DNA of 64,000 bases from Nitrospirota bacterium (GTDB taxonomy: Bacteria; Nitrospirota; UBA9217). Where the stretch lies: assembly GCA_963737155.1 (NCBI GenBank), contig CAVTRN010000002.1:992001-1056000 (forward strand), written 5' to 3'. The position numbers were made by a program, and so were the translations under genes. The notes under the pieces were generated by a model, which saw only the letters and a list, made by a program, of their open reading frames with translations, made no database searches and was not told where the DNA came from. This document shows positions 10,237 to 54,634 of this stretch, one piece after another; position 1 is the stretch's first letter; each line of letters opens with the position of its first letter.

Positions 10237-10245
10237 TAAATTATC

Positions 10246-11786: not shown

Positions 11787-11900
11787 TATTCCACGCAGCT
11801 TGCTGCGTGGTCACCTTATAGAGGGAAGAGTAAGAGAAACCGCAGGTTTCTCAGTTGAAAATCTTTCCTTTATACCCCGTCAGCTTGCTGCGGGGTATTG
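11787..11900. repeat. Paired GC-rich palindromes (REP/PATE-like miniature element), copy 1
   Basis: CCACGCAGC-TT-GCTGCGTGG (11791-11810) and ATACCCCGTCAGCTTGCTGCGGGGTAT (11872-11898), internal hairpin GAGAAACCGCAGGTTTCTC. Confidence 0.6.
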
Positions 11901-13938: not shown

Positions 13939-13942
13939 GATC

Positions 13943-15349: not shown

Positions 15350-15433
15350 AGCATTGTTGTAAATTTACGGAATCGAAAAAAAACAAGTCACAGCTGATGT
15401 TTCGTGGCCAAGAGCCATGTCATCCAGGAGGGA

Positions 15434-16154: not shown

Positions 16155-16167
16155 AAAGGAAGAGCGC

Positions 16168-17232: not shown

Positions 17233-17252
17233 AAAAGGGAGAGGTCAGTGAC

Positions 17253-18434: not shown

Positions 18435-18457
18435 AGCTTTTTTGCGGAGGGTTCACA

Positions 18458-19831: not shown

Positions 19832-19846
19832 GGGAGGGCTGGTGAG

Positions 19847-20809: not shown

Positions 20810-20832
20810 GGAATTAAGGAGGGGTGTAACTA

Positions 20833-21783: not shown

Positions 21784-22721
21784 TGATTGAAAAAACGACA
21801 AAAGGAATCCTTTTCGCTTGCGTGATTGCAGGAGTTTTGCTATCCGGATGTGCAACGAATAATACCGGGGCCCTCTCAAACGCTGGGAAATACGGAAATC
21901 TTGAGGCGCGCAGGCTGTTGACCACTGATGGTAAAAAGGTTGATGATGAGCCCATAAACAACACGGCCGAGGGTTACGAGCGACTCGGAGATATTAACCT
22001 TCAAAAGGGTGATATCACGACTGCCTTCATAAACTACACAAAGGCGCTCAAGTTGGAGCCTGGAAGGATCTCAGCCACTTATAAGACAGGAATGCTCTTT
22101 TTATATAAGGGCATGACGCAGGAAGCCCGGACGGAATTCGAGAAGATATTGAAGAAGGATCCGAAGAACGCTCTCGCTCATGAGGCGATGGGAAGGGTCT
22201 ATCTTCTCGACAGCGACAATGTAAAGGCTATTGAATATTTTGTGAAGGCCCTGAGTATAAATGATCGTCTATGGGAGGGTCATGATCTGCTCGGCATCGC
22301 TTATGATAGGCAGAGAGAATTCAACTTGGCAATTGACCAATACAAAGCGGCGCTTTCCATAAAGCCCGATGCAATCGCCGTTTACAACAACCTTGGAATT
22401 TCATATTACCTGGCGGGAGACTACAAGAAGGCAAAAGACGCATTTATCACCGCGATAAAGAAAGGCGAGGAGGAAAGCAAGGTCTACAACAACCTTGCTC
22501 TGACTCTGGGTAAACTGGGTGAATATCGTCAAGCTCGCGAGGCCTTTGAGAGGGCTGGAAGCGAGGCGACGGCGCTAAATAACCTCGGGTATCTTTATAT
22601 GCTTGACGGGAATAACAATGAAGCGGCTCTTGCCTTTGAAAAGGCCATCGAGTTGAACCCGGTCTTTTATGATAAGGCCAACGATAACTTGAAGAGGGCG
22701 AAAGAAGCCTTGCATGAATGA
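21783..22721 (+). CDS. tadD: TadD-like TPR lipoprotein
   Basis: Lipobox LLSGC, multiple TPRs (YNNLG), last gene of the tad operon. Confidence 0.85.
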   Translation: MIEKTTKGILFACVIAGVLLSGCATNNTGALSNAGKYGNLEARRLLTTDGKKVDDEPINNTAEGYERLGDINLQKGDITTAFINYTKALKLEPGRISATYKTGMLFLYKGMTQEARTEFEKILKKDPKNALAHEAMGRVYLLDSDNVKAIEYFVKALSINDRLWEGHDLLGIAYDRQREFNLAIDQYKAALSIKPDAIAVYNNLGISYYLAGDYKKAKDAFITAIKKGEEESKVYNNLALTLGKLGEYRQAREAFERAGSEATALNNLGYLYMLDGNNNEAALAFEKAIELNPVFYDKANDNLKRAKEALHE

Positions 22722-29445: not shown

Positions 29446-29479
29446 TATGATACTTCTTTCAACAAGGAGGTCTCACCCA

Positions 29480-30997
29480 ATGGGTGACTCGATTTCATCT
29501 CCACCTACAGATAAAACAGATAGAATTGCAGTCGATACCTTTGCAGGAAAAGTGCATGTTGAATGGGATTCAACAGCAGCCGTTACACCAATGGGCCAGC
29601 TGGCGTTCTTCATCGATTTTTTGAAGACGGGTGGAATCTACGAACCATGGGTAGCAGACTGTCTACTGCACTACACGAGTCCTAACGCACCCGAGAAGCG
29701 CGATCTTCTCGGTACAGTCCTGTTGTCCGTTCTAGCCGGTCACCATCGTTATTCCCACATGACGAGCGTTCGAAGCGATAATGTCAACCCGGCACTACTC
29801 GGCATGACGAAGGTCGTGAGCGAAGACACCGTACGGCGGGGATTTAAGCAGATGGATGAGCATGCCGGCATCTCATGGCTTACTGAGCACATGAGGCGAT
29901 GTTATGAATCCCTCCTGTGCATGCCATGGATTATGGACGGAGATACGACAGTCAAACCGTTGTACGGAAAACAAGAGGGCGCGGTCATTGGTTACAACCC
30001 GCATAAGCCCGGCAGGCCGTCTCACACCTATCACAGTTACCTGATGGCCAATACCCGGCTTGTTTTGGATGTTGAGGTGCAGGCCGGAAACAAAACAGCA
30101 ACGTGTTACAGCACCCCGGGGTTATGGCAGCTTCTGGAACGACTCCCGCGTCGCTTTTGGCCTGCCTTTTTCCGGGGGGATTCAGGCTGGGGCACGGACG
30201 GCTTCATGAGTCAGGCAGAAGAAAAAGAATTGCCCTATCTCGTGAAGCTACGCCTCACGAAGAACGTGCGGAGGCTTATTGAGAAGGCATTCTATAGTAA
30301 CGATTGGGTAGATGCCGGACAGGGCTGGGAGGGTGTGGAAGAATCCCTTCAACTCATGGGATGGCAGAAATCTCGTCGCGTTATTATCCTTCGACGAGTG
30401 CTCACGGGAGACGTAGCAATAAGCCTGCAGCAGAAGGATCAGATGGAACTTGGGTTTGTGGAAGCGCCCGGAGTTGCCAAGCGATATGAGTATGCAGTAC
30501 TAGCCACCACCCTCAAAGACGAGATTCTCACAATCGCCCAACACTACCGTGATCGTGCGGATGCAGAGAATATTTTTGACGAGTTGAAGAATCAGTGGGG
30601 CTGGGGCGGATATACGACCCGGGACCTTAAGCGCTGCGGCTTCATGGCGCGGACCGTAGCATTAGTTTACAACTGGTGGTCGCTCTTCGTGAGGCTTGCT
30701 CATCCGGACAAACACTTGGAGGCAATTACGAGTCGTCCGCTTCTTCTGCATGCGGTTGGCAAACAAACACGCCATCAAGGGCAGACCATGATGACCATCA
30801 CGAGTGCGCACGCAAGCTCTGGAAAAGTTCAGCGCATTCTCGATGAGATATCCCGCTTTCTAGCAATCCTGAAAACAACTGCGGAGCAGTTGACTCCAGG
30901 TGAACGGTGGCGACGTATCTTGAGCCGTGCATTTTTCAAACTACTGGGTGGAAAACCGTTGCAGGCGCCTGAACTTCTGCCGTTATGGTGTGGATAA
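29480..30997 (+). CDS. IS1380-family DDE transposase
   Basis: MDGDTTVKPLYGKQEGA..GYNP, RGDSGWG, YRDRADAENIFDELKNQWG; AAGGAGG RBS before ATG 29480. Confidence 0.85.
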   Translation: MGDSISSPPTDKTDRIAVDTFAGKVHVEWDSTAAVTPMGQLAFFIDFLKTGGIYEPWVADCLLHYTSPNAPEKRDLLGTVLLSVLAGHHRYSHMTSVRSDNVNPALLGMTKVVSEDTVRRGFKQMDEHAGISWLTEHMRRCYESLLCMPWIMDGDTTVKPLYGKQEGAVIGYNPHKPGRPSHTYHSYLMANTRLVLDVEVQAGNKTATCYSTPGLWQLLERLPRRFWPAFFRGDSGWGTDGFMSQAEEKELPYLVKLRLTKNVRRLIEKAFYSNDWVDAGQGWEGVEESLQLMGWQKSRRVIILRRVLTGDVAISLQQKDQMELGFVEAPGVAKRYEYAVLATTLKDEILTIAQHYRDRADAENIFDELKNQWGWGGYTTRDLKRCGFMARTVALVYNWWSLFVRLAHPDKHLEAITSRPLLLHAVGKQTRHQGQTMMTITSAHASSGKVQRILDEISRFLAILKTTAEQLTPGERWRRILSRAFFKLLGGKPLQAPELLPLWCG

Positions 30998-34896: not shown

Positions 34897-35025
34897 CATT
34901 CTTCAAGGTTGGCGCTCTATGTACTAAAATCGCGTCGTCTAACGACTTTTTTTATGCAATATTAGGGTCAATAAGAAACAGTCGCTTCCAATCGCTATCA
35001 ATAATTGTCCGAAGGAATCAAAAAC

Positions 35026-38010
35026 ATGTACTGGTTAGTATTAACTTTGTTTTTCTTCTCAGGAGTTTGCGGACTAATTTACGAAGTTGTCTGGTCCAGA
35101 ATGATGCAGGTAATTTTAGGCAGGAGCACGCTTGCTATTGGAATCGTCCTCGCAGCCTTCATGTCGGGTCTTGCGCTCGGCAGCTATTTAATCGGGAAAT
35201 ACTCTGACCGGAGCCGGAACTCCCTGCGGCTCTATGCCTTTTATGAGATTGGCACCGGTCTTGCTGCTTTTGTCGCAACGTTCCTGCTGGGCAGGTTAAT
35301 CCCGCTCAATGTCTGGGCGCATACAAATTTTGGTAATTCACCACTGGTGCTTGCCATTTGTCAATTTTTGATCGCGTTGACCCCTCTAATGATCCCGACT
35401 ATCCTGATGGGTGCTACGCTGCCGATCCTCTCCCGTATCGTTGTCACGCAGCTGTCCAAGGTTGAACGAGACCTGGGGCGCCTCTATGCCATTAATACAG
35501 TCGGAGCGGTGATCGGAAGTCTCGCGTCCGGCTTCTTCCTCATCAAACATCTCGGTGTGCATGGTGCAGTTTATTTTGCCGTTATCGGTAATTTAGCCGT
35601 AGGAGCGCTTGCCTGGCTTGCCTCGGCACGGAGCGACATTTTGAATGCCGCTTCTCCTGCTTCTCTATCAGAAAGTTCCATCCAGCCCCCTCCCATGGAT
35701 GCGCCGACTCGGCGAAAATTCCGGATCATACTCGGGGTATTTGCCCTCTCCGGTTTTGCATCGTTTGCCTATGAGGTCTTCTGGACCCGCTCACTTGTTT
35801 TCCTTATGGGGAACACAACCTACGCCTTCTCTTTGATGCTTACAGCATTTCTGTCGGGGATTGCCCTCGGCGGATACGGGATACGTTTCGTCGCAGAGAG
35901 GTTCAGGAATCCCCTGCGTTTGTTCGCGATAATCGAGGTCCTCATCGGGATCTTTTCAGCTGCGTCTCTACCTCTACTCTTTTCCATCGTGCAGTCTGCC
36001 GTCATTAGGGCGATTATTTATCTTATGTCCGGTCATCTCGGGTTGCTTGCTTTGTCGGATTTCGGGGTTGCGCTAGTCATTATGCTCGTGCCCGCTACTC
36101 TGATCGGGGCAACTTTTCCTTTAATGGGGCGGGTATTCCTCGACGACCTGACGAATACCGGTACTACTGTGGGGAAGGTCTACGCTGTCAATACGGTTGG
36201 CAACGTTTTGGGAGCGCTGCTCTCTGGTCTCCTGATCCTGCCGCTGATGGGCATACAGAAAGGCATCCTTCTCATGGCTACCCTGAATATATTCCTGGGT
36301 ATCGTAATTGCGTTCTCCCGCCGGAAAAACGCTCTGGCAACGACAGCTGCAACTACGATCGTATTCATCGTTCTTGCTCTGGGCCTGTTCCGTACGTCAA
36401 TTAATTTCCAGTTCCCGTCGGAGAAACAAACACAACAAGATGCAGTACTTTTTTACAAGGAAGGGAGCCTTGTAACAACAAAAGTATGGACCAGCACCGA
36501 ACTCGATGACAAGATTATGAGCATCGACGGAATCAATATCGGGGGGACGGAAAACACCGATTACAAGCAGCAAATTTTGGCGCATCTGCCGAAACTATTG
36601 TTAAAATCCTACCGCTCAGAACTTTCAATCGGGCTAGGTTCGGGCATTTTGGCCGGTGAAAGTACCCGCCATGCAGGGCTGCAGAGAATGGTGTGTGTTG
36701 AGCTCGCCCGCGGTGTCGTCGAAGGAGCCCGTTACTTTTCGGAAGAAAATTTCAACATTGTCAAAAATCCCCGCGCCTGCATAGTCATCGATGATGTCAT
36801 CAATTTCCTCCATATGACAAAGGAGCGGTATGATATTATTTCTGCTGACGAAAAAACAGCGCGCCAGTATGCATCAAATTCGATGTCATACTCGAAAGAT
36901 TACTATATGCTCCTGATGCAGCATCTCACCCCCGGCGGGCTCGTCATCCAGTGGGTGCCAACGGACCTTCCATCATCCCAGTATGCCTTGGCAATAAGGA
37001 CTTTTCTCGATGCCTTCCCCCACGTGATGCTCTGGTATTTTCCGCCAGTCGGAAGATCTAACTTTACCAACACCTTTCTCGTAGGCTCCAACAAACACAT
37101 CGACATAGATCCCTCCTGGATGCGTCAGGAACTGGAAACAAATCCTGTGTCGTTTCAAGGTATTCGCAAATATGGCTTGACAACGGCCGATTCAATATTG
37201 GCTCATTTTATTGCCTCCGAAGAAACCTTGCGGCGAGCCATTCCACCTGGGCCGATAAACAGCTTCGAAATGCCTATCTATGAGTTCTATTCTCCCAGGG
37301 ACTATGCTACCCCCCGGCAGGAGAGAGAACTTACCAACCATGAGTGGCTGCTGTCTTTCCGTGGACAGGATTACGACAGATTTGTGGCAAAAGATACCAC
37401 AAGCCCTAATGCTGCCCATCTGAATGCGGCATTTCAGGCAGAAGGTGTTTTTCTCAAGGGACACGCCCTTGAGTTAAAAGGATGGAAAGATCCTACGCTG
37501 GTTCCGTATTACGAGCAGGCCATTGGTATGGCACCATGGGATATGAACCTGCGTAATGAAGTCGCCATCTCCTTCTATATCTTTGCCAAGGAATGCGCCG
37601 CGCGTGGTGATTATCCCAGAGCAGCAACATACTTTCGTCGTGCGACAGAGATATTCCCTGAGAGCCCCGAGTTTCATTATCAATACGGAGTGATGATGCT
37701 CCAGTTTATGAACAATGCGAACCCGAGCATCAAGGAGTTTCAACAAGCCTTATCGTTGAACCCAAGCTTCGTGCCTGCACTTCGGAGTTTAGGTGCAATT
37801 TATGCATCCCTCGGGAATATGGACAAGGCCCTTGAGCTATGGCAAAAAGCCCTTGCGCTTAACCCGAATGATGTAATTGCTCTCATCTTCAATGGGCAAT
37901 ATCTCATGAAGCATACGGGGAGTTCGGAGGAGGGGATGGAATACCTCCGGAGGGCGTACAGTCTGGCACCTAAAAACCCCACTGTACTCAAAGCGTATCA
38001 ACTTCTTTAA
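35026..38010 (+). CDS. Fused membrane domain / spermidine synthase-like SAM-binding domain / TPR protein
   Basis: SG..GLIYEVVW.R and LYAINTVGA repeated twice; IGLGSG, VEL, YDII, L.PGG...QW; C-terminal TPRs. Confidence 0.85.
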   Translation: MYWLVLTLFFFSGVCGLIYEVVWSRMMQVILGRSTLAIGIVLAAFMSGLALGSYLIGKYSDRSRNSLRLYAFYEIGTGLAAFVATFLLGRLIPLNVWAHTNFGNSPLVLAICQFLIALTPLMIPTILMGATLPILSRIVVTQLSKVERDLGRLYAINTVGAVIGSLASGFFLIKHLGVHGAVYFAVIGNLAVGALAWLASARSDILNAASPASLSESSIQPPPMDAPTRRKFRIILGVFALSGFASFAYEVFWTRSLVFLMGNTTYAFSLMLTAFLSGIALGGYGIRFVAERFRNPLRLFAIIEVLIGIFSAASLPLLFSIVQSAVIRAIIYLMSGHLGLLALSDFGVALVIMLVPATLIGATFPLMGRVFLDDLTNTGTTVGKVYAVNTVGNVLGALLSGLLILPLMGIQKGILLMATLNIFLGIVIAFSRRKNALATTAATTIVFIVLALGLFRTSINFQFPSEKQTQQDAVLFYKEGSLVTTKVWTSTELDDKIMSIDGINIGGTENTDYKQQILAHLPKLLLKSYRSELSIGLGSGILAGESTRHAGLQRMVCVELARGVVEGARYFSEENFNIVKNPRACIVIDDVINFLHMTKERYDIISADEKTARQYASNSMSYSKDYYMLLMQHLTPGGLVIQWVPTDLPSSQYALAIRTFLDAFPHVMLWYFPPVGRSNFTNTFLVGSNKHIDIDPSWMRQELETNPVSFQGIRKYGLTTADSILAHFIASEETLRRAIPPGPINSFEMPIYEFYSPRDYATPRQERELTNHEWLLSFRGQDYDRFVAKDTTSPNAAHLNAAFQAEGVFLKGHALELKGWKDPTLVPYYEQAIGMAPWDMNLRNEVAISFYIFAKECAARGDYPRAATYFRRATEIFPESPEFHYQYGVMMLQFMNNANPSIKEFQQALSLNPSFVPALRSLGAIYASLGNMDKALELWQKALALNPNDVIALIFNGQYLMKHTGSSEEGMEYLRRAYSLAPKNPTVLKAYQLL

Positions 38011-43367: not shown

Positions 43368-43383
43368 TGGCATTTTTTTTGCA
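43368..43383 (+). promoter_or_regulatory. Candidate sigma54 promoter of the first decaheme cytochrome
   Basis: TGGCA-N6-TTGCA with exact GG-N10-GC spacing, about 200 nt upstream of the start in an AT-rich region. Confidence 0.55.
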
Positions 43384-43582
43384 CTAAGTACTAAGGTTTC
43401 AGTAAAATTGATTTATTCGGTCTCGATAATATTTTAAAACGCCAAACTAAATAGCATTAAAACATCTTAAGCTGATATTCCGAAAAAAGGAGGAGAGAAA
43501 TATTGACGTAATTTAGGCAGTTTTATTGTTGATGCGTGTATGCCGTGGTTTTTTAAAAATCTTAAGAAATGGAGGCAACATA

Positions 43583-46180
43583 ATGAAGACACAGTCATAC
43601 TCGAAGTTGTTGTTGTATGTTGTACTATGCTTCACACTGGTTGTCGGACTTGGCCTCATGTCTGGTTGTAAAGGTAGTAACGGTGCGGCTGGTGCGAATG
43701 GCGTCAATGGCACCAACGGAACGAATGGCGTCAATGGAACGAATGGCACCAATGGTGTCAATGGAACGAATGGCACCAATGGCGCGAATGGTATTGGCGC
43801 TTTGACATCTGTGCTAACTTATACCACGGTCATCAATAGCGTTGTTGTCACTTCCGATACCACAAGCGCATCCATGGTTATTAATTTTTCCGTTCAATAT
43901 ATAAACCCCGATACTGGCGCAGTGGGCGGCGAAATTGTTGGTCTCGACGCACCAGATTCAGTCACTGCGACGAATCTAGGTCACCTGCGGTTCAATATGG
44001 TAAAACTTATCCCGGGTCTGGCCACTGCGGGTACTTCCACTGATCTGGCTTCCAATGAGGAGTGGAACAGCTGGTGGGCGGTTGGCTCTTCGGAACGTAC
44101 TGCCGCCCGTTTGACCAACAATGGAAATGGATTGTACACATATACTACGGGAACCATGGCTGTTTCCGGGGCGACGCCAACGTACAATTTCTATGATCCC
44201 AAAGCGTACACCCGCGTCGTGCTGCTGGTGATGCCCAAAGACAATAGCGGCTCAGGCAATTTTGTATCGCCAGTCGCGATTGAGCTGGGTGAAGCCGCGA
44301 AATATGACTTTATCGGGAACAGCGGGACGCTGGTATCTGAAACGACGTCAACGCTTTCTCAAGATGTTGTCCCGACTGCACAATGTCTTAATTGCCATGC
44401 CACATTTGGCGATCCGAGACTTAACCCCTTGGCGTTCCATCCTGATGAAGGCCGCGTAGAGACTTATGCCTGCGTCGTATGCCATGACGAGAGCAACTTC
44501 ACCATGGATATTACGGCTGTCTCGAGCGGAGTTACTTACACATTCCCCTTCGGCGAAGGTGCGCTCGGGACCTGGATCCACAAGATTCATACCGCCCAGG
44601 TAATATCCACCTTCACTACCTTCACCTCGATAGAATATCCGCAGGACATCAGGAACTGCACAACTTGCCATAGCAATGGCGCGGACAGCGCCAACTGGAT
44701 GAACAGGCCGAGTGCAAAGGCATGTCTCTCTTGCCATAATCCGAATTATACACTTGACCCGGTCATTGCCGGTATGGCGGCTTTGACGTCTCCCTCGACA
44801 ACCCACGGTGGCGGTCAAATAGGCCCGATCGGCTCAGGCCTTACCAACGACACTGAGTGCTTTACTTGTCATGGTCCGGATGGTATCGAGCCTGTAGCGA
44901 AACACCACGAGACTGACTTCTCCACAACGCACAACCCCGTAGCGACCGAGCCGACTATTAGTTTTGCGATTAGCGCAATATCCGTGTCGCCTACGACGAG
45001 TGCTCCAACCATCACGTTTACGATTTATGCGGGCTTCCCGCCAGCAGCACTTACGCCTGTAACGCTTAACACCTCAGCCGGGTTTGTAGTGTCTGGTACC
45101 ACCTTTACCGCCACAAACCTTCCAGCCTCAGACCATCCCCAAACGCTGCAATTCTTATTTGCATACGCAGTGCCGCAGGACGGGATCGCGCAGCCGTCCG
45201 ACTGGAACAATCGTGCGGAAAGTTACACCGTCAATCTGTCTAGCTTAGCTAGCGGAACAACGGCAGGTACCCTGACCCATAACGCGGACGGCAGTTATAC
45301 CGCTGTCGTGAGCGCCTCTACGTTCTCGGTTCCTTCAAACGCAACGTTGTTGACGGGCGCATTATGCGGACTTTTTGAAGACGAGACCACCGGCGTGAAC
45401 ATTCCGGGACTGGCGTCCATGGTGACCGCGAAGGGTTACACACCACGGCGTGTCATCATCACTACTGCCAATTGTAATAAGTGCCACGAGCAGCTTGGCG
45501 ACCAAACTCTCGCTCCGTTGACCCCCACCTCAACTGCGGGATACAACATCCACGATGGAGCGTATGATACTCCTACATTAATGTGCGCGATGTGCCATAC
45601 TCCTGACCTGACCGGCAGTAACGGATGGTCCGCATCCTTCAGGGTCTGGTACCACGCCCTTCATGCGGATACCATACGGACTGTGGCGTTCGAAGGCAAC
45701 ACCGAGTTCCCAGCCATAGCGTATCCTGGCGTTCTGAGCAACTGCGAGCAGTGTCATCTGCCAGGCACCTACGACTTCAGCGCTTCTCAATACACACCCA
45801 GTCTTATCGCTAATTTCCTGATGATTACCGATGTGACGGGCACACCCGCAGCAAGCGCACTCAACGCGCCCTATTTTGTGGCGAATGGAGTGAATAATTA
45901 CGGCATCACTGCAGCTGTGACAAACGGCACAGCGACAGACGGAGCTGCCAACCTCGTGAGTTCGCCGATTACCGCAACATGCACGGCCTGCCACGATGCC
46001 AGCGACGCAATTGACCATATGGTGGAGAATGGCGGAGCGTTCTACGTGCCGCGCTCTACGGCATTTACCAATACTCTGTCCACCGTCAACCAGGGTGAGT
46101 CCTGCCTCGTTTGCCATGGTCCCGGCGCTATAGAGTCTATTCAGAGCGCTCACAACCATTTAATAATTCAAAATCAGTAG
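43583..46180 (+). CDS. OmcA/MtrC-family decaheme c-type cytochrome lipoprotein, copy 1 (865 aa)
   Basis: Lipobox LMSGC; 10 CxxCH in 5+5 arrangement separated by a heme-free domain; IHKIH, YPQDIRNC, HM..NGG; GGAGG RBS. Confidence 0.92.
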   Translation: MKTQSYSKLLLYVVLCFTLVVGLGLMSGCKGSNGAAGANGVNGTNGTNGVNGTNGTNGVNGTNGTNGANGIGALTSVLTYTTVINSVVVTSDTTSASMVINFSVQYINPDTGAVGGEIVGLDAPDSVTATNLGHLRFNMVKLIPGLATAGTSTDLASNEEWNSWWAVGSSERTAARLTNNGNGLYTYTTGTMAVSGATPTYNFYDPKAYTRVVLLVMPKDNSGSGNFVSPVAIELGEAAKYDFIGNSGTLVSETTSTLSQDVVPTAQCLNCHATFGDPRLNPLAFHPDEGRVETYACVVCHDESNFTMDITAVSSGVTYTFPFGEGALGTWIHKIHTAQVISTFTTFTSIEYPQDIRNCTTCHSNGADSANWMNRPSAKACLSCHNPNYTLDPVIAGMAALTSPSTTHGGGQIGPIGSGLTNDTECFTCHGPDGIEPVAKHHETDFSTTHNPVATEPTISFAISAISVSPTTSAPTITFTIYAGFPPAALTPVTLNTSAGFVVSGTTFTATNLPASDHPQTLQFLFAYAVPQDGIAQPSDWNNRAESYTVNLSSLASGTTAGTLTHNADGSYTAVVSASTFSVPSNATLLTGALCGLFEDETTGVNIPGLASMVTAKGYTPRRVIITTANCNKCHEQLGDQTLAPLTPTSTAGYNIHDGAYDTPTLMCAMCHTPDLTGSNGWSASFRVWYHALHADTIRTVAFEGNTEFPAIAYPGVLSNCEQCHLPGTYDFSASQYTPSLIANFLMITDVTGTPAASALNAPYFVANGVNNYGITAAVTNGTATDGAANLVSSPITATCTACHDASDAIDHMVENGGAFYVPRSTAFTNTLSTVNQGESCLVCHGPGAIESIQSAHNHLIIQNQ

Positions 46181-46243
46181 GATGAGATCAGGAGAAACCG
46201 CTGAGAGCTTCTGTTAATCTCGGCGAATTGGATCTCAAGATTC

Positions 46244-46276
46244 TGGGCGGGCCCTTCGGGGCCCGCCTATTTTTTC
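46244..46276 (+). terminator. Rho-independent terminator
   Basis: GGGCGGGCCC-TTCG-GGGCCCGCCT plus T-run. Confidence 0.88.
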
Positions 46277-47176
46277 ACGCGGCATGAAAGGCAGACCGGA
46301 AACAAAGGTTTCCCAGTTTCTCGTGCTCGGATATCGTTACTCTGCTTTTGCTATTTTCTATTCGCTGTTACCCGCCTTATTGATGCAGACTGCCCAGGTA
46401 TTCAGTTTAATGCTGTTTGTCCCAGAAGGGATAGTTTGATCTTGCAAATATCTCCTGGGGGCATACTGGGTCCTACCCATCGTCGTCCGACCTAACATCG
46501 TATATATCTATGATGAGTTATCCTCGCTGATCGCGGTGCGCGAGCGCTCACACTGCCCCTGTGCAACAATCTTTGAGGCTGGGTGAGGGGACAGAATCTC
46601 GCAAAGTCTTCCCGGGACTTAATCGCGTCAGAAAGTCTCCCGCGCTAAAAGTCTGCTGAACGATGAAAAGCGTTTGCTGCATTACTCGGAGCGCATATTT
46701 TGTAAATTTTAACGGGCTTGGAATGTCCTTCATTTTGTCCTTGATTCATACCTTTTTTCGCACTATACTTCTTCTGATGTTTAACCATGTGGTTTCACTC
46801 TTGTTTAAAAAAGGTTTAATTTGGACAGTTTTTCATGACCAGGGAGTGGCTGTTCAACAAAGAGTATTCCAATATATTATAAAATAAACTACTATCAGTC
46901 TACCGAGTTGCAACACCGGCAAAATCGTAGACATCTGCGATTTCAGGCGATTATGGACGGCGTTTAAAGAATATCGGAAACTTTTTTCGAAAAATATCTT
47001 GTTATTTATACAAATCAACGACTAATCTCGTCCAAAATAGACGACAACATTGATATCCTGACTGTTTGGAGTTTAATTCGACGTCCTGCGCTCTTGGCGC
47101 AGGGTTATCCCGAATACTAAATAGCAATTTGACGGCCATGGTTTTTTTAATAATCTTAAGAATTGGAGGCAACATA

Positions 47177-49705
47177 ATGAAGACGCAGTCATTCCCTAAA
47201 TTGTTACTGTATGTTGTACTATGCTGCACACTGGTTGTCGTACTTGGCCTCATGGCTGGTTGTAAAGGTAGCAACGGTGCAGCTGGTGCGAGCATCAATG
47301 GTACCAACGGCACGAATGGCACGAATGGCACCAATGGCGTCAACGGCACGAATGGCACGAATGGCACCAATGGCGCGACTGGTATAAACACTTTGACATC
47401 GTTGTTAACTTATACCACGGTTATCCAGAGCGTTGTTTTTACTTCCGACACTACAAGCGCTTCCGCGGTTATTAATTTTTCCATAAATTATGTTGTGGAC
47501 GGCGTACCGACAAGCCAGGCAGTTTTGGGTCTCGACGCTCCAGATACCGCCACTCCAACAAATCTGGGCCACCTACGTATCAATATGGCAAAACTCCTTC
47601 CCGGCGTGCCTGATACTAGTATTGCCAGCACTACGCCGAATACCTGGTGGGCGGTTGGTGCTAGTGAACAGTCTGTCGCCCGTTTGACCAACGATGGGAA
47701 TGGCCTGTACACGTATACGACAGGAACCATGGCGATTTCCGGGCCATCGACGACGTATAATTACTACGATCCAACACAATACACCCGCGTCGTGCTGATG
47801 GTGATGCCCAAAGACCAGAGAGGCACAGGTGTTTCTGTTTCGCCAGTTCAGATTGAGCTGGGCGAAGCCGCGAAATATGATATAACGAACGGGTCATTGG
47901 TTTCCCAGGATGTTGTCCCAACCGCACAATGTCTTAATTGCCATGCGACATTTGGCGATCCGAGACTTAATCCCCTGGCATTCCATCCCGATGAAGGCCG
48001 TGTCGAGACCTATGCCTGCGTCGTATGCCATGACGAGAACAACTTCACCATGGATGTTACGTCTGTTGTAAGCGGAACGACCTTAACATTCCCCTTCGGC
48101 GAAGGGGCACTTGGTTCTTGGATCCACAAGATTCATACCGCTCAGATAATATCCACTTTCCAGACGTTTTCAACGATAGAATATCCGCAGGACATCAGGA
48201 ACTGCACAACTTGCCATAGCGGCGGCGCGGACAGCGCCAACTGGGAGAAGAAACCAAGTGCAAAGGCATGTCTCTCATGCCATAATACGGCGAATACGCT
48301 TTATCCGGAGATAGTAAACTTTGGCGCTTTGACGTCTCCCACGACAACCCATCTGGGCGGACAAATAGTTCCGGTCCCCTACGGCGTTAATTGTGGACCA
48401 AATGGACTTTGCGACGACAGAGGATGCAAGGACTGTCATTCGCCTGAATCGATTGCGGGGAATCATGAGACCGATTTCTCCACAACGCACAACCCCTTAG
48501 CGACGGAGCCGACCCTTAGTTTCGCGATTAGTGCAATATCCGTGTCGCCTACAACGAGTGCTCCAACCATCACGTTTACGATTTATGCGGGCTTTCCGCC
48601 AGCGGCACTTGCGCCGGTAACACTTAACATCTCAGGCGGGTTTGTTGTGTCTGGTACCACCTTTACCACCACAAACCTTCCGGCCTCAGACCATCCTCAA
48701 ACACCGCAAATCCTGTTTGCATACGCAGTGCCGCAGGACGGTATTGCGCAGCCGTCTGACTGGAACAATCGTGCGGAAAGTTACTTCGTCAATCTGAATA
48801 GTTTAACCAGCGGAACAACGTCAGGTACTTTGACCCAGAACGCGAACGGCAGTTATACCGCTGTCGTGAGCGCCGCTACGTTCTCGGTTCCTTCAAACGC
48901 CACGTTGTTAACGGCCGCCTTATGCGGAATTTACGAAGACACGTCCACCGGCGTGAACATTCCGGGACTTGCGTCCATGGTGACCGCGAAGGGTTACACA
49001 CCACGACGTGTAATCGTCGCTGCTGCCAATTGTGATAAGTGCCACGAGCAACTCGGCGCCCCAACGGTCACTTACAACATCCACGAGGGAGCGTATGACA
49101 TTCCAATGTGCGCGATGTGCCACACTCCCAACCTGACCGGCAGTAATGGATGGTCCGCGTCCTTCAGGGTCTGGTACCACGCCCTTCATGCGGATACTAT
49201 ACGGACTGTGGCGTTCGAAGGCAACACTGAGTTTCCAGCCATAGCGTATCCTGGCGTTCTGAGCAACTGCGAGCAGTGTCATCTGCCAGGCACCTATGAC
49301 TTCAGCGCTTCTCAATACACGCCCGGCCTCATCGCTAATTTCCTGATGAATACCGATGTGACGGGCACACCCGCAGCAAGCGCACTCAACGCTCCTTATT
49401 TTGTGGCGAATGGAGTGATTGGTTACGGCATCACCGCAGCCGTGACAAACGGCACAGCCACTGACGGAGCTGCTAACCTCGTGAGTTCGCCGATTACCGC
49501 AACATGCACGGCCTGCCACGATGCCAGCGATGCTATTGACCATATGGTGGAGAATGGCGGATCGTTCTACGTCGCGCGCTCTACGGCATTTACCACTACT
49601 CTGGACACTATCAACCAAGGCGAGTCCTGCCTCGTTTGCCATGGTCCCGGCGCGCTCGTGTCTATTCAGAGCGTTCACAATAATTTAGTAATTCAAAATC
49701 AGTAG
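47177..49705 (+). CDS. OmcA/MtrC-family decaheme c-type cytochrome lipoprotein, copy 2 (842 aa)
   Basis: Lipobox LMAGC; 10 CxxCH; close paralog of copy 1. Confidence 0.92.
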   Translation: MKTQSFPKLLLYVVLCCTLVVVLGLMAGCKGSNGAAGASINGTNGTNGTNGTNGVNGTNGTNGTNGATGINTLTSLLTYTTVIQSVVFTSDTTSASAVINFSINYVVDGVPTSQAVLGLDAPDTATPTNLGHLRINMAKLLPGVPDTSIASTTPNTWWAVGASEQSVARLTNDGNGLYTYTTGTMAISGPSTTYNYYDPTQYTRVVLMVMPKDQRGTGVSVSPVQIELGEAAKYDITNGSLVSQDVVPTAQCLNCHATFGDPRLNPLAFHPDEGRVETYACVVCHDENNFTMDVTSVVSGTTLTFPFGEGALGSWIHKIHTAQIISTFQTFSTIEYPQDIRNCTTCHSGGADSANWEKKPSAKACLSCHNTANTLYPEIVNFGALTSPTTTHLGGQIVPVPYGVNCGPNGLCDDRGCKDCHSPESIAGNHETDFSTTHNPLATEPTLSFAISAISVSPTTSAPTITFTIYAGFPPAALAPVTLNISGGFVVSGTTFTTTNLPASDHPQTPQILFAYAVPQDGIAQPSDWNNRAESYFVNLNSLTSGTTSGTLTQNANGSYTAVVSAATFSVPSNATLLTAALCGIYEDTSTGVNIPGLASMVTAKGYTPRRVIVAAANCDKCHEQLGAPTVTYNIHEGAYDIPMCAMCHTPNLTGSNGWSASFRVWYHALHADTIRTVAFEGNTEFPAIAYPGVLSNCEQCHLPGTYDFSASQYTPGLIANFLMNTDVTGTPAASALNAPYFVANGVIGYGITAAVTNGTATDGAANLVSSPITATCTACHDASDAIDHMVENGGSFYVARSTAFTTTLDTINQGESCLVCHGPGALVSIQSVHNNLVIQNQ

Positions 49706-49767
49706 GATGAGATCGGCAAAAATAGCCGGGAGCTTCTGTAAATCTTGGCGAATTGGATCTTAAAAAT

Positions 49768-49797
49768 ATGGGCGGGCCCTTCGGGGTCCGCCCATTT
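49768..49797 (+). terminator. Rho-independent terminator (group IIC intron target)
   Basis: GGGCGGGCCC-TTCG-GGGTCCGCCC-ATTT, paralogous to 46244-46276, T-run cut by the intron 5' end. Confidence 0.85.
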
Positions 49798-50833
49798 GTG
49801 TGCCGAGCATGTTTGAATGCTTGGAAGTGCTAGTCCTCTTTACCCAGCCTGATGGAGGCGAAATGTTATCGAGTCGTAAGGGCACCATCGTGAGTTGGGT
49901 GCTGAAGGAAGCGTAGAGCAAAACTGCGGCTTGAAGAACAGAAACCTGAGACGAAGCAAACGTGGTCGGACTAGCTGGCTGATGACTGCGAAGTCCGCAT
50001 CCATCAAAGGTGCACAGCGTCAATCTGTCAGGTGTACGGTGAAGGCGGTCGAACTACTTCGGGAGCTCTGGGTTGTTTCTTGAAAACAAAACTGAGGAAA
50101 CCATGAGGGTTCCTGATCCTGACGCAGAAGTCATCAAAGGGCAAGATAGACATGTGTAGTCGTCTTCCTCGATTGGGACAATCGCGCGAAAGGGAAGACA
50201 CGAATGGCCCGGCATGGTGTAAATGTAGCGGCAAATAGGACGCACGACTTATGGATGGTCAAGCGGCAAAAATCCAATTGGAACTGGCCGTTTACGGAGG
50301 CAGAAGGTAGGGATGAAGCCCTATAACGGCCGGAGAAGGGGCCGACCGTCTTCGGCGAAGAGCGCAACGAAACGCCCGGCGACCGAACAACTTAGGGCTG
50401 AGTGTGCGAGCGAGAGAACATAAGTAAGACGTTACGGATGGTCATACGCAATCAGAGGGCCCTTGGCATCGACGGGCACGATTGTTAAGGAGCTGCGGGA
50501 CTATCTGCTTTACCTTGACCCGTCATACGGGAGCAGCTCACAACCGGTCAGCATAAACCCGGGCACGGTTAAGCGCGTGACCACCTCTAGGCCGGATGGC
50601 GGGGAACACAAACTCGGCATATTCACCGCCCTCTACCGATTTATTCAGCAGACGATCCTGTAAGTGCTGCAACCAAAATGGGACAGCACGTTTAGTGACC
50701 AAAGCTGTGTGTTCCATCCCGGACGCTCGGCGTATCGGGCCGTAGACAAGGCGCAAGATAATATTGGCCAAGGCCAGGAATGGACTTGGGAGAAGTTTTT
50801 TTGGCCGAGTCAACCGCGATATGCTGATGAGGG
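49798..50833 (+). mobile_element. Group IIC intron, degenerate and 3'-truncated
   Basis: Starts GTGTGCCGAGCATG directly after a terminator hairpin; followed by a decayed RT ORF; no domain V/VI seen. Confidence 0.8.
50251..50833 (+). pseudogene. Group II intron reverse transcriptase/maturase fragment
   Basis: Frameshifted GIDG, VKRV...PDGGEHKLGI...RFIQQ.IL*VLQP.WD.TFSD...F.PGRSA..AV, EKFF.RVN.D.LM (RT0-3). Confidence 0.85.
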
Positions 50834-50903
50834 CTATAATACATAAAATTATTTAAATTGTTTACAAGATAATCTGCTGCGTACCATCGACATGCTTTTT
50901 CCC

Positions 50904-50932
50904 TTGATTTGTAATAGGATTTTCTGTATAGT
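50904..50932 (+). promoter_or_regulatory. Candidate sigma70 promoter of the porin-cytochrome operon
   Basis: TTGATT-N17-TATAGT with TG extended -10. Confidence 0.45.
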
Positions 50933-51400
50933 AAAGCCGTTTTTTATAACCGTCTTCAATATCTCAAGCGGTAGGAATAGTCCTCACTCCTTAGCCTACG
51001 CCCGGAGGAATAGCAAAGACTGCACCCTTGTATTTATTGTGCTTACATAACAAGAAAGTATTATTATACGAGGCATCGTAATCAGGCTGTAGAGTGCCGC
51101 ATCCAGTTATAAAAATTTTGATTGCCAGTTTACTCACATCATAAAAGGTGATGTGCAACCTGCGTCGTATAAGAAAACTTTTGATTGATATTGCCCGGTG
51201 AGGCAAATAACCACTCAGGGGTTGCAGGTGACACCGCCTCCATGGGGCATACTCAAGCTTCCGACTACGAACTTCATGACTCATCATATGAACGTACGCG
51301 ACAAATGCGGTTGTACGATAAACAGGGTTGGTTGGCGATTGCTCCACAAAAGCAGTACGCAAGCTTTTTGTCCAGCAGTTTTTTGAAGGGAGGATACAAT

Positions 51401-52702
51401 TTGAGAAGTGATGGCATGCCGCAAAAAATGAAAAGCGGTCAACCGGCGCTGCGAACGACGTCTGCAGTAGTTCTCATTCTACTTCTTTCGCTGTGCAGCA
51501 CGTCGGGTGTTTCCATGGCAGCAAGCCTGTCCGGTGATTCCAGCACTTATTTTGAATCCAGGCAGCAAGAAGACGGTTCGCATGTTTTTGCAGGATATGA
51601 ATACCTCGATTTTGCCGTACAAGACATCGGCGCTGATACGGTTTCATTCCATACCGGCGGCTGGCTGCGTCAAGATTTCCAGACCGAAGAGTATGACACG
51701 AGATCGAACAGCGATCTTCAGTTTTCTTACCTGAGTTTCAAAAGTAAAACCGACAACACAGTAGTCAATCTTGGTCGCGTGATGGTTTTCGAGGGGGTGG
51801 CTGCAGAGAGGGTTGATGGTATTTATGCGCGAACTGATTTAGCGGCTGGTTTTGGGATGTCAGCGTTCGGCGGCATCCCGGTAGAGACCAACATAAATAT
51901 TTCCGGCAACAATGTGATTTATGGCGCGCGGCTTTTTAACCAGATGGGCAACATATACAATATAGGAATTTCAGCGCTCGAAGAGGAAAAAGACAGCCAA
52001 TCCTACCGGAAAGAAGCAGGCATCGATCTGTCGGTGCATCCGATTGATAAAGTGGATATAACTGGCAGGTCCAGTTATAACGATATCACTGACGGTTGGA
52101 TGGAAAATACCTATGTGCTATCGCTGGGGCCTTTCGCAAATATGAGGTTTGATACCACGGCATCGTGGATTAACTATGACGATTACTTCTTCCGTGTTAC
52201 TACAAGTGCTCTTTCTACAACATTGGGATTGCTCCCCCAAGGCGAAAAAGTGCGTAAGTTGGGAGAAGCGGCATCGTATCAGGTAACAGACAACGTGAGT
52301 ATCATTGCCGATTATAAAAATTTCGATTATCTCATCGAAGGCGATGCCAACTACTATGGGGCGATGGTCAAGTATTCCGTATCCGGCTCCGGCGGCGCGG
52401 GACTCGGGTATCACAGTATGAATGGAGACACGGACAGACTACGGTACAACGAGTATCGAGTCTACGGTTTTAAAAAGCTCGGCAAGGTAAATTTAACTGC
52501 AGACGTACTCGATTTGGTCTATGAAAGCCCCATCAATGGAGTAAAAGATTCCTTTTCCGGGACGCTTGCGGCCGAGTACGATCTCACGGACGCATGGAAA
52601 CTTGGCGCCGACGTTGAATATTCCCACAACCCCGATTTCAACAGAGATATCCAAACCTTTGTCAAGCTTATCTATCATTTCGGCGCCAAAGGAGGGGCTT
52701 AA
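51401..52702 (+). CDS. Outer-membrane beta-barrel porin of a porin-cytochrome conduit (ExtB/ExtE-like)
   Basis: Signal peptide (..SMA|AS), alternating aromatic beta-strands, LGR.MVFEGVA.ERVDG, C-terminal strand FVKLIYHF; co-operonic with multiheme cytochromes; start uncertain (TTG 51401 after GGAGG). Confidence 0.75.
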   Translation: MRSDGMPQKMKSGQPALRTTSAVVLILLLSLCSTSGVSMAASLSGDSSTYFESRQQEDGSHVFAGYEYLDFAVQDIGADTVSFHTGGWLRQDFQTEEYDTRSNSDLQFSYLSFKSKTDNTVVNLGRVMVFEGVAAERVDGIYARTDLAAGFGMSAFGGIPVETNINISGNNVIYGARLFNQMGNIYNIGISALEEEKDSQSYRKEAGIDLSVHPIDKVDITGRSSYNDITDGWMENTYVLSLGPFANMRFDTTASWINYDDYFFRVTTSALSTTLGLLPQGEKVRKLGEAASYQVTDNVSIIADYKNFDYLIEGDANYYGAMVKYSVSGSGGAGLGYHSMNGDTDRLRYNEYRVYGFKKLGKVNLTADVLDLVYESPINGVKDSFSGTLAAEYDLTDAWKLGADVEYSHNPDFNRDIQTFVKLIYHFGAKGGA

Positions 52703-52703
52703 G

Positions 52704-53144
52704 ATGAGGACATCTGCGTTCAAGATGTTTCTGTTGATGGCTCTCGTACCGATTCTCGGCATGTATGCCTGCGCCCATACGGCAAGTTATGCGACGTCAC
52801 ACCCCGTGGAAATAACAGGCTTCCCTATCTGCAGTGATTGCCACACGGATTGGCGGGCTGCAATGGACCACACCAGTGATTACGCGGAACGACACAGATT
52901 CTATGCAGGGCAGCATAGTGGGGCCTGCATAATATGCCACAAAGAGTCGTTCTGCTCCGACTGTCACGCACACAGGGAGGAGCTGAAGCCGAGCGACAAG
53001 TATCCGGATTCTCCGGAGCGGACGATGCCCCACCGGGGCGATTATTTAAACCAGCACAAAATCGACGGTCAGATCGACCCGGCTTCGTGCATGAAATGTC
53101 ATGGCCGATCGAATAATGAGAGGTGTGCCCAGTGTCATCATTAA
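52704..53144 (+). CDS. Pentaheme c-type cytochrome lipoprotein (ExtC/ExtF-like)
   Basis: Lipobox-like MYAC; CSDCH, CIICH, CSDCH, CMKCH, CAQCH; GGAGG RBS. Confidence 0.85.
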   Translation: MRTSAFKMFLLMALVPILGMYACAHTASYATSHPVEITGFPICSDCHTDWRAAMDHTSDYAERHRFYAGQHSGACIICHKESFCSDCHAHREELKPSDKYPDSPERTMPHRGDYLNQHKIDGQIDPASCMKCHGRSNNERCAQCHH

Positions 53145-54151
53145 CGAAAAGCTTGATAGCCAGCCTGCTTCTTATTGCAGGATTGTCAGCTCTAGGAGGT
53201 TGCGGCAATAGCCAAAAGAACGGACAAGCCGTGTTCTATGAGGACGATGCGCAACATCCGGCCAATTGGCTGCCTGCGGGCCACATGGCGGCCGCCCAGG
53301 CCAATGAGAGCGCCTGCACCCAATGCCACGGGAGTGATTACAGCGGAGGTATTAGCGGGGTGTCATGCACGCTGTGCCACCTCGGAGGGGTGAACTCGGT
53401 ACATCCCGTTTCGTGGGGCACGGGCAGCCAGGTTGTTCCGAATCATGGGGCCTACGTTGTGTCTAACGGGACTACCTCATGCTCGAATGTTTGGTGCCAT
53501 GGTTCCGGCCTTGTCGGCGTCACGGACAGTGGCCCCGCCTGTGTGAGCTGCCATCTCGGTGGTCTAAGCACAATATTATCAGGATGCGTTAATTGCCATG
53601 GGGTCCCGCCGAACGGGAGCGCTGATCCGAACGTCGCGGGAGCTCATGCGGTGCATAATGCGCTTCCCAACGTTACAAATGTCTGCAATACCTGCCACAA
53701 CGGCGCCGGAAGCGGAACAGTGAATCACGATAACGGCATCATTGTTGTGCAGTTCTTGAGCGTATATAGTGCAGAGAGCGGGACGGCTATATATAATGCC
53801 GCTGATAATACGTGCTCGAACGTGAGCTGCCACGGCGGCCAGACGACGCCCGTATGGCTTACTGGTTCGCTCGATGTAAGTACCCAGTGCACGTCCTGCC
53901 ATGCCTACGGCAATAGCGAGTACAACGGCTTTTATTCCGGCCAACATTATTTCCACGTGGAGGTCCTGGATTTCCAATGCACGGTATGCCACAATGTTTC
54001 ACAGCTTGCTGTAAGCCACTTCGTGTCCTTGAATACGCCAACGGTAGAAGGACTGGAGGCGCCTGCTGCTCTGACAATTCAAAGCGACGTGAATTTCAAC
54101 CCTGTTAATTTAACGTGCACACCGTCTTGCCACGCGACTCAAAATTGGTAG
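53123..54151 (+). CDS. CxxxxCH/CxxCH-domain multiheme cytochrome c lipoprotein (10 heme motifs)
   Basis: Lipobox LGGC; 7 CxxCH + CSNVWCH + CSNVSCH + CTPSCH. Confidence 0.85.
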   Translation: MCPVSSLTKSLIASLLLIAGLSALGGCGNSQKNGQAVFYEDDAQHPANWLPAGHMAAAQANESACTQCHGSDYSGGISGVSCTLCHLGGVNSVHPVSWGTGSQVVPNHGAYVVSNGTTSCSNVWCHGSGLVGVTDSGPACVSCHLGGLSTILSGCVNCHGVPPNGSADPNVAGAHAVHNALPNVTNVCNTCHNGAGSGTVNHDNGIIVVQFLSVYSAESGTAIYNAADNTCSNVSCHGGQTTPVWLTGSLDVSTQCTSCHAYGNSEYNGFYSGQHYFHVEVLDFQCTVCHNVSQLAVSHFVSLNTPTVEGLEAPAALTIQSDVNFNPVNLTCTPSCHATQNW

Positions 54152-54204
54152 TATCAGTTTTACACGGGGATGTTATATAATTGAGAAGGATCAATATATG
54201 GAGG

Positions 54205-54235
54205 AGGCCCGGGTTTCTGTCCGGGCTTTCTTTTT
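54205..54235 (+). terminator. Rho-independent terminator of the porin-cytochrome operon
   Basis: AGGCCCGGG-TTTCTG-TCCGGGCTT followed by TCTTTTT. Confidence 0.65.
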
Positions 54236-54283: not shown

Positions 54284-54634
54284 ATGGTGAAAAAAGAAGT
54301 GAGATCTCTGATGATTGTAGTGCTGATTGCATTCGCTATCAATGGGGCAGGATGTTCCAAATTTTTTGGGCCATCCAACGATGAAGTAATTAAGGCGATA
54401 AACGACAGCGGAAGACTCAAAGGCAATGCTTTTACTGTGACAGCGCCGATTGAAGTTGTGGAAAAAGGGAGCAGAAAGGATGATGGAGGCTGGCCTGTCA
54501 CCGTCAAACTTAAGTTGAGTGTTAAGATGGGAAATGGTCAGATAAGGCAGCTTGAAACAAAAACGAATTTTAGAATATATAAATCAGAGGACAGCACAGG
54601 TAAAACTGTCTGGACGGCGAAATTAGGCAAGTAA
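54284..54634 (+). CDS. Hypothetical lipoprotein
   Basis: Lipobox GAGC, GPSNDEVIKAI; AAGGAG RBS. Confidence 0.7.
   Translation: MVKKEVRSLMIVVLIAFAINGAGCSKFFGPSNDEVIKAINDSGRLKGNAFTVTAPIEVVEKGSRKDDGGWPVTVKLKLSVKMGNGQIRQLETKTNFRIYKSEDSTGKTVWTAKLGK

Follow-up and report, generated by a model that had tools for sequence, protein, structure and literature searches.

What are two MtrC-like surface cytochromes doing beside a porin-cytochrome operon of the Geobacter kind, in a bacterium that is neither Shewanella nor Geobacter? The question is raised by a 64-kb stretch of Nitrospirota DNA (hereafter the window; coordinates without a locus label are positions in it), in which the decaheme cytochromes decaA and decaB lie upstream of genes for a porin-like protein, a compact pentaheme (c5) and a multiheme lipoprotein (c10). 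The Mtr system of Shewanella and the Pcc/Ext systems of Geobacter have been treated as separate and unrelated, and here parts of both kinds are linked, in two phyla. The reading favored here, with somewhat better than even confidence, is that the locus is a two-layer chromosomal module for extracellular electron transfer, composed of a conduit core of the Pcc/Ext type (51401-54151) and two separately transcribed, stalked decahemes (43583-49705). Many relatives have this pairing too, so its parts probably cooperate in passing electrons between the cell and minerals. The analysis establishes the family assignments, heme counts, lipoboxes, operon layout and synteny of the locus, along with the repeated recruitment of MtrC-like genes to it. 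An earlier note on this DNA had described a hybrid inserted between engB and argB, a reading that was right in kind; the locus is neither singular nor, as 'inserted' would suggest, a recent arrival.

The decahemes are members of the OmcA/MtrC family, as the earlier note had proposed. Both have ten CxxCH sites in a 5+5 arrangement (in decaA at 268, 297, 359, 381 and 426, and then at 631, 668, 721, 800 and 841), and both exceed the TIGR03507 cut-off of 209.3 bits, with scores of 266.8 for decaA and 274.6 for decaB. Each also contains two PF22113 domains, corresponding to domains II and IV, at 150-151 bits. A profile of 31 decaheme neighbors of porin operons like this one matches the solved structures of MtrF (3pmq, E-value 4e-72), UndA (3ucp, 1e-56), the MtrC of MtrCAB (6r2q_C, 4.5e-49) and OmcA (4lmh, 7e-49). 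The decaA gene has a GGAGG 7 nucleotides 5′ of its ATG, and its product has the lipobox MSGC, with the cysteine at position 29; all 31 aligned neighbors have a Gly-Cys pair where the signal peptide ends, and a surface location is predicted for these proteins. Like Shewanella MtrCAB/OmcA (6r2q, 4lm8, 4lmh, 3pmq), the window therefore has decaheme lipoproteins of this family with 5+5 hemes in two pentaheme domains, and it has them as tandem paralogues, as with mtrC and omcA. The two window proteins are 79% identical overall, with a minimum of 63% in the N-terminal beta-rich domain, and decaB has an additional cysteine pair before heme 5. Given this identity, their sister placement in the decaheme tree, and the 84% identity of the first 92 nucleotides that follow the two stop codons (the decaB copy lies at 49706-49797), the pair is attributed to a tandem duplication in this lineage.

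Downstream, the porin stop codon and the c5 start are 2 nucleotides apart and c5 and c10 overlap by 22 nucleotides, so the three genes form one operon. Their order of porin, pentaheme and multiheme is that of Pcc/Ext operons and is the same in related loci. Full-length homologues occur in Geomonas and other Geobacterales (porin 39-46% identical), which bears out the assignment of the operon to the Pcc/Ext type. The most conserved part is c5, with a mean column identity of 70% over 24 homologues from both phyla and roughly one heme for every 24 residues; its identity is 50-61% to pentahemes from the loci of Geobacterales type and 54-60% to those from Geomonas. It has a lipobox-like MYAC with Cys23, most relatives showing (L/F)(Y/F)AC at this position and seven lacking the cysteine (L019, L022-L025, L027 and L031). 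PMC6148476 lists GM18_3462 and GM18_3468 of Geobacter sp. M18, along with Gbem_3373 of G. bemidjiensis, as homologues of ExtF at 43-46% identity, and by this transitive evidence c5 would be of the ExtC/ExtF type. The third protein, c10, has the lipobox LGGC, where the relatives viewed have G-C or A-C, and it passes the cut-off of TIGR01904, a CxxxxCH/CxxCH domain family, with 34.4 bits against 27. Its atypical heme sites are CSNVWCH, CSNVSCH and CTPSCH; atypical CX3-4CH sites have also been reported for the outer cytochromes GSU_2724 and GM18_3461 (PMC4245776). Among its homologues the third gene conserves the first ~150 residues and the lipobox, and ranges from ~140 amino acids with 3+1 sites to 683 amino acids with 11+10 sites.

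The open reading frame (ORF) at 51401/51416-52702, noted earlier as lying between the decahemes and c5, is indeed there and has no heme motif. It is preceded by GGGAGG before the TTG codon, encodes a signal peptide with no hydrophobic or transmembrane helix after it, and gives a product in which Gly, Asp, Ser and Tyr are abundant. Neither Pfam nor NCBIfam has a family that matches the protein above threshold. It belongs to a large family (420 homologues at an E-value of 0.001 or better among 7997 candidates scored; 553 clusters at 50% identity in a large library), of which none of the 120 homologues listed has a name beyond 'hypothetical protein'. The family alignment displays 17 amphipathic segments of period 2, with 73 positions exceeding the threshold where shuffles give 38.8 +/- 10.9. 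The Pfam matches of its members are all sub-threshold, the most recurrent being to outer-membrane barrel families (BBP2 in 5 of 32 members, OMP_b-brl in two, Porin_4 in two, and FadL, DUF5777 and BCSC_C in one each), alongside a few matches to unrelated families. The protein is thus likely to be a beta-barrel, as far as its sequence can tell; the porin profile, c5 and c10 gave nothing meaningful against solved structures. Two distant members of the porin family, P0233 (724 amino acids) and P0235 (943 amino acids), continue into C-terminal Pro/Ala-rich linkers, repeated domains of ~70 residues and an end resembling tetraheme cytochrome c3, and would be natural porin-cytochrome fusions if their gene calls are right.

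The remaining Shewanella components, the decaheme MtrA and the barrel MtrB, are not at the locus. In agreement with the earlier note, neither occurs among the annotated or unassigned ORFs of the window, where scores on the DmsE/MtrA model TIGR03508 stay at or below 24 bits against a cut-off of 192, and nothing among the multiheme ORFs scanned from 62 related loci reaches that model. An ORF of 308 amino acids with nine heme sites, directly 5′ of the MtrC-like gene in one related locus (L018, 5304-6230), was rejected as an MtrA with 20 bits on TIGR03508. Shewanella MtrB is about 700 amino acids long, whereas the predicted sheath of the window has ~430 amino acids, with a five-heme insert. In predicted strands, Shewanella MtrB has 28 (PMC4245776) and the Geobacter counterparts of the window porin have 18-22 (PMC4245776, PMC6148476).

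The 62 related loci (labeled L001, L005 and so on) were obtained by a genome profile search with the porin alignment. They comprise 41 from Nitrospirota and 21 labeled Geobacteraceae, Desulfuromonadales or 'Deltaproteobacteria', here called Geobacterales-type; no G. sulfurreducens locus is among the results. In every locus of sufficient length, a c5 homologue comes next after the porin, and after it a multiheme whose N-terminal part is the one seen in c10. Recurrence of the link between this core and a decaheme had been set beforehand as a test of the proposed pairing. The loci contain 58 ORFs of at least 350 amino acids with at least six CxxCH sites, of which the 48 outside the third-gene position were scanned, and 43 of these 48 large neighboring cytochromes, all within 10 kb, pass the cut-off of PF22113 (MtrC/MtrF). 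The linkage recurs in 37 of the 62 loci (23 of 41 in Nitrospirota and 14 of 21 of Geobacterales type), with a strong match of at least 75 bits in 27 loci; in L008, a locus beyond these, an OmcA/MtrC gene is present but split. The decaheme lies upstream of the porin in Nitrospirota and often 1.5-3 kb downstream of it in Geomonas and kin. In the Geomonas loci L043 and L054, whose porins and pentahemes are 40-41% and 54-60% identical to those of the window, a decaheme of ~1000 amino acids (PF22113, 142-162 bits) stands between two triads. A second triad of porin, c5 and multiheme is found in the same locus in L016 (15029-17084) and L028 (16555-18643) as well as in L043 and L054; in L016 and L028 it is a distinct, old paralogue, and the Geomonas copies that flank the decaheme are near-identical.

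The histories of the two layers differ. In the porin tree (63 rows, made up of the window porin plus 62 matches that reach 350 residues or more; L017, L020, L026 and L062 are examples of those omitted as shorter or split), a single branch with 100% support separates the 40 Nitrospirota rows and the window porin from the 22 others. The decaheme tree has 51 rows (two from the window, 31 from the loci and 18 database proteins, with split or fragmentary genes and near-duplicates omitted) and requires eight changes for its 19 Nitrospirota rows and four for its 12 Geobacterales rows, with betaproteobacterial and myxobacterial proteins interleaved among them. Because the porin tree splits the phyla and the decaheme tree mixes them, the MtrC-like partners were swapped or recruited repeatedly beside a conduit core that was stably inherited. 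The pairing is more than inherited synteny alone would explain, since one and the same core has several times gained a neighbor from a different MtrC lineage, and this repeated gain by a stable core is the strongest argument for a functional link. A conserved inner part with a replaceable outer lipoprotein has been described for Ext clusters generally (PMC6148476, section 19).

The length of the third gene may be related to the presence of a decaheme. A third gene of at least 440 amino acids occurs in six of 15 loci that lack an MtrC-like neighbor and in one of 37 that have one (Fisher p = 0.0014, for a threshold picked after viewing the data and for rows that are related; a rank test on all lengths gives p = 0.44). 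The pattern fits either device, a long third gene or a decaheme, serving as the outer end of the conduit. In L013 (8231-10282) and in L032 and L052 (11671-13640), the third gene encodes 649-683 amino acids with 17-21 heme sites and an MtrC-like neighbor is absent. It is as if a longer wire could replace the separate decaheme.

Where these proteins sit, which of them touch and in which direction electrons flow we infer by analogy with MtrCAB/OmcA and the Pcc model. Electrons from periplasmic carriers, which are not encoded at the locus, would enter the pentaheme c5, a protein that is little more than a heme wire and most likely lies in or under the porin sheath. At the outer mouth, c5 would be met by the conserved N-terminal part of c10, the remainder of which would extend the wire; c10, a lipoprotein heme wire, most likely emerges outside. 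The stalked decahemes would most likely draw electrons at the conduit's outer end or from c10, much as OmcA and MtrC are arranged around MtrAB, and hand them on to acceptors that are insoluble or large, for instance oxides of Fe(III) or Mn(IV), or humics.

A number of observations weigh against this scheme. No MtrC-like gene is present in 25 of the 62 loci, some of them short contigs, and L007, L013, L020, L021, L030, L032 and L052 lack one despite having room for it. A weak class, 14 of the 43 PF22113 matches, scores 37-50 bits and consists mostly of proteins of ~900 amino acids, many of which have CarboxypepD_reg at the N terminus. The phylogeny of the decahemes was built quickly under LG+G4, with neither an outgroup nor a root. 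The decahemes of the window are transcribed separately, at a distance of 1.7 kb from the porin operon, and the reading of this genome covered 64 kb of a contig of 3,078,661 bases. When decaA was searched as a single sequence against solved structures, no MtrC was retrieved, only a low-complexity match through the Gly-rich stalk. Shewanella MtrC has a CX8C disulfide in its beta-rich third domain; the window proteins lack it and have one cysteine there (Cys595 in decaA, Cys583 in decaB), at a feature that is outside the TIGR03507 family model. Because c5 and c10 both have a lipobox, a plainly soluble periplasmic cytochrome is not encoded at the locus. The published location of the pentaheme is itself inconsistent, being periplasmic in the account of PMC4245776 and that of a lipoprotein in PMC6148476.

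Among the alternatives, the one that survives best keeps the architecture and reverses the current, so that Fe(II), Mn(II), humics in reduced form or a partner cell would donate electrons that are carried inward to the periplasm. This is possible and clearly less likely than outward flow. The porin-c5 core also occurs in metagenome-assembled genomes (MAGs) named 'uncultured Nitrospira sp.' (L032, L052), Mtr-type conduits can operate both ways (PMC6148476), and a role in Mn(II) oxidation has been put forward for other porin-cytochrome complexes of Nitrospirota (PMC9040806). In two distant Nitrospirota loci, L042 (11654-13438) and L061 (6706-9393), the core is accompanied by cytochromes that contain class I domains of the c550/c551/cbb3 type, the kind usual in high-potential chains; these loci, however, lie outside the clade of the window, and the window itself offers no indicator of the metabolism of the organism. 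The authors of FeGenie regard MtrC as a marker of iron reduction that iron oxidizers do not encode (PMC7005843), and Shi et al. (2014) saw the pcc cluster in no known Fe(II) oxidizer (PMC4245776).

It is doubtful that the decahemes instead serve a classical MtrAB encoded elsewhere, their proximity to the Pcc operon reflecting a neighborhood that collects cytochrome genes. Such an arrangement would suit the separate transcription of the decahemes, the 64-kb reach of the genome reading and the fact that the stretch from engB to the porin is the variable part of the locus. It would also resemble Desulfobacterota in which mtrC lies away from an mtrAB that always stays together, according to PMC12133095. 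Linkage in 37 of 62 loci, across two phyla and with several unrelated MtrC lineages, is hard to reconcile with mere collecting, as is the lack of MtrA and MtrB described above for the window and for the multiheme ORFs scanned from the 62 loci.

Least probable is complete independence, in which the stalked decahemes would be free-standing surface or matrix cytochromes charged by diffusible shuttles: a stalk of 10-15 triplets could, if a rigid triple helix, keep the heme domains off the membrane, and the 57 MtrC/OmcA-like cytochromes of a survey of Desulfuromonadia are called not associated with porin complexes in that work (PMC11492766, 2024), but recurrent co-location speaks against it, as does the rarity of a long third gene beside an MtrC-like neighbor at the threshold chosen post hoc.

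Returning to a cooperating two-layer module, the closest published parallel is in Geobacteraceae, where the mixed architecture was already drawn for Geobacter sp. M18 in 2014 (PMC4245776). Shi et al. describe duplicated pcc clusters, each with a 5-heme and a 6-heme CX3-4CH cytochrome, flanking GM18_3465, a '10-heme outer-membrane' protein that is read there as a porin-cytochrome fusion with 21 membrane strands (PMC4245776). As described there, GM18_3461-3463 and GM18_3467-3469 resemble the window in having a porin-like protein, a 5-heme cytochrome and a CX3-4CH outer cytochrome with an adjoining 10-heme cytochrome; the likeness rests on architecture, and the window differs in that its decahemes are upstream, in tandem, on a collagen-like stalk, ~850 amino acids long and in a Nitrospirota host. 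The layout of the Geomonas loci L043 and L054 is that of M18, and their predicted proteins show that the decaheme position in this layout holds an MtrC-family protein. Likewise, the legend of Fig. 9 in Jimenez Otero et al. (2018) records for some relatives an 'additional lipoprotein decaheme upstream of extE' (PMC6148476).

Other comparisons are more partial. The ExtEFG and ExtBCD clusters of G. sulfurreducens, as presented in PMC6148476, share with the window the order of porin, pentaheme lipoprotein and multiheme, and ExtC and ExtF are 49% identical to one another (PMC6148476). Compared by description, ExtG is predicted to be periplasmic and has 12 hemes, whereas c10 has a lipobox and ten sites; ExtEFG also belongs to a hydrogenase transcription unit, whereas the window operon lies between engB and argB. 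Desulfuromonas acetexigens and other Desulfobacterota have MtrC-family proteins and Pcc conduits in one genome, with mtrC apart from mtrAB (PMC12133095). That study pairs the Desulfobacterota MtrC with an MtrAB elsewhere, and its available text contains neither Nitrospirota nor a mention of linkage to Pcc operons (PMC12133095). Within Nitrospirota, PCC_1 to PCC_3 of 'Candidatus Manganitrophus' are porin-cytochrome complexes as well, set apart by their description as a porin with a dodecaheme, proposed for Mn(II) oxidation, with PCC_1 restricted to that family (PMC9040806); MtrC and OmcA have zero occurrences in the text of that paper. The FeGenie 'DFE' clusters of Desulfovibrio ferrophilus, reported in Thermodesulfovibrionia MAGs (PMC8478452), were considered and set aside, as they contain NHL-repeat proteins and the authors of PMC9769857 see no porin-cytochrome conduit in them. 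Another Thermodesulfovibrionia paper, PMC13647500, concerns Cyc2 only. No description of the module in Nitrospirota or Thermodesulfovibrionia was found in the accessible parts of the literature on extracellular electron transfer, porins, multihemes, MtrC and iron reduction. As far as these searches reach, the locus is a conserved variant of a known conduit type, partly anticipated in Geobacteraceae and new in Nitrospirota, and what goes beyond the printed record is that a Pcc core has recruited MtrC-like partners repeatedly, together with the collagen-like stalk.

This stalk is an addition of the window over Shewanella MtrC and OmcA. In Nitrospirota decahemes a Gly-X-Y run begins right after the lipid-anchor cysteine, with 15 triplets in decaA, 10 in decaB and 16 in L011, and Pro-rich runs of collagen type occur in L004, L005 and L006. 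A collagen-like run is listed for residues 28-75 of the window proteins (43670-43800 and 47290-47390) and also for L009, and Pfam Collagen narrowly passes in decaA (27.7 bits against a cut-off of 27.2). The underlying DNA consists of tandem repeats with periods of 9, 27 and 36 nucleotides (43697-43791 and 47292-47382). No such run is present in the Geobacterales decahemes, and no description of one on a multiheme outer membrane cytochrome was found in the literature. The Gly-X-Y run may form a trimeric stalk, which makes a collagen-like support for a multiheme cytochrome a directly testable structural idea. It is conceivable, if rather unlikely, that MtrC-family decahemes are interchangeable outer modules, untied from MtrAB, that dock onto an unrelated and smaller Pcc-type conduit, and that in Nitrospirota triple-helical stalks would gather them into lipid-anchored trimers, each with 30 hemes and some 9-14 nm away from the outer membrane, forming a layer that reaches out to minerals. 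If so, such trimers would add to cytochrome nanowires and shuttles a new way across the space that separates the cell from the mineral.

Were the parts of the module to cooperate, MtrC homologues in metagenomes would be unusable as markers of an Mtr pathway, such organisms would be miscalled by software that demands an mtrAB next to mtrC, and a widespread uncultured clade of Nitrospirota would become a candidate for respiring minerals or taking up electrons. The locus also supplies a concrete test system for the docking partner of MtrC-like proteins in organisms without MtrAB.

Features of the locus, with coordinates in the 64-kb window
Feature	Coordinates	Strand	Description
decaA	43583..46180	+	OmcA/MtrC-family decaheme lipoprotein, 865 aa
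terminator-like hairpin 3′ of decaA	46244..46269	+	11-pair stem, 9 G-C, then T run
decaB	47177..49705	+	tandem paralogue of decaA, 842 aa
group II intron fragment	49884..50053	+	RF02001, 81.7 bits, domains 1-4 only
conserved non-coding leader of porin operon	50833..51400	+	71-76% nucleotide identity to L001 9275-9980
porin-like outer-membrane protein	51401..52702	+	433 aa (TTG 51401) or 428 aa (ATG 51416); likely beta-barrel
c5, compact pentaheme	52704..53144	+	146 aa, 5 CxxCH
c10, multiheme lipoprotein	53123..54151	+	342 aa, 7 CxxCH + 2 CX4CH + 1 CX3CH
orf116, small lipoprotein	54284..54634	+	116 aa, lipobox GAGC

The four co-oriented cytochrome genes contain 10+10+5+10 heme sites, exactly the count of the earlier note (32 CxxCH and three longer motifs, all on the plus strand), whose coordinates overrun the first gene by 215 nucleotides and the last by 84. 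No other ORF of at least 60 amino acids in the window has more than one CxxCH, and ten heme motifs in a protein would be far beyond chance by simple composition. The flanking genes are also as described earlier, with tig-clpP-clpX-engB upstream and argB-hslU-hslV-xerC-topA downstream on the minus strand. Of the 41 Nitrospirota loci, 27 have argB-hslU downstream and 17 have engB upstream. The position between engB and argB must be old, because it is kept across Nitrospirota with porins down to 47% identity; the 'insertion' is accordingly no recent arrival, and a recent island is ruled out by this conserved synteny together with a G+C content within the range of the rest of the window. Only the decaheme portion of the engB-argB module varies. 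The closest relative, L001, is identical to the window at 77% of porin positions, 97% in ClpX and 95% in both ArgB and HslU, which identifies the host as Nitrospirota and agrees with the expectation that the lineage would be neither Shewanella nor Geobacter.

The intergenic stretches have features absent from the earlier note. A spacer of 1.0 kb with a strong terminator separates decaA from decaB, and the 1.7-kb gap between decaB and the porin gene contains the remnant of a group II intron, enclosed in a window-specific stretch of ~1 kb (~49793-50832) that has no counterpart in L001. No domain 5/6 was matched at E-values up to 0.1, no group II intron was matched in seven related loci scanned, and the ORF fragments of the 49.7-51.4 kb gap contain no reverse transcriptase or other family; the intron fragment is not part of the electron-transfer system. 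By contrast with this window-specific stretch, the ~570 nucleotides immediately before the porin gene are taken to be a conserved leader, because of their identity to the closest relative and because no plus-strand ORF of at least 100 amino acids lies wholly inside them. They match no Rfam family and may represent a long leader or regulatory region.

Two small ORFs sit between c10 and argB. One of them, orf116, has tblastn matches in 18 Nitrospirota loci and in no Geobacterales locus, its relatives being located either just 5′ of the porin or just 3′ of the multiheme. No Pfam or NCBIfam family matches it, and it is a possible accessory gene of the module whose function no family assigns.

Other features of the window and of related loci concern different subjects. 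L006 has an SAH riboswitch at 2620-2709 that is unrelated to the electron-transfer module. In the window, six tRNA genes (9367-10233) are followed by a stretch of low G+C content (10001-12000; 0.386 against ~0.50 elsewhere). A Tad/Flp pilus cluster occupies 13048-22721, with CpaB, a secretin, a TadE/G-like protein, a CpaE-like ATPase, TadA, two T2SS-F proteins and a TPR protein. Adjacent transposase genes of the IS1634 and IS1380 families, and then a minus-strand ORF of 514 amino acids without a family, lie at 27661-30997, and a protein of 1001 amino acids encoded at 35005-38010 fuses a membrane domain to a spermidine synthase and TPR repeats.

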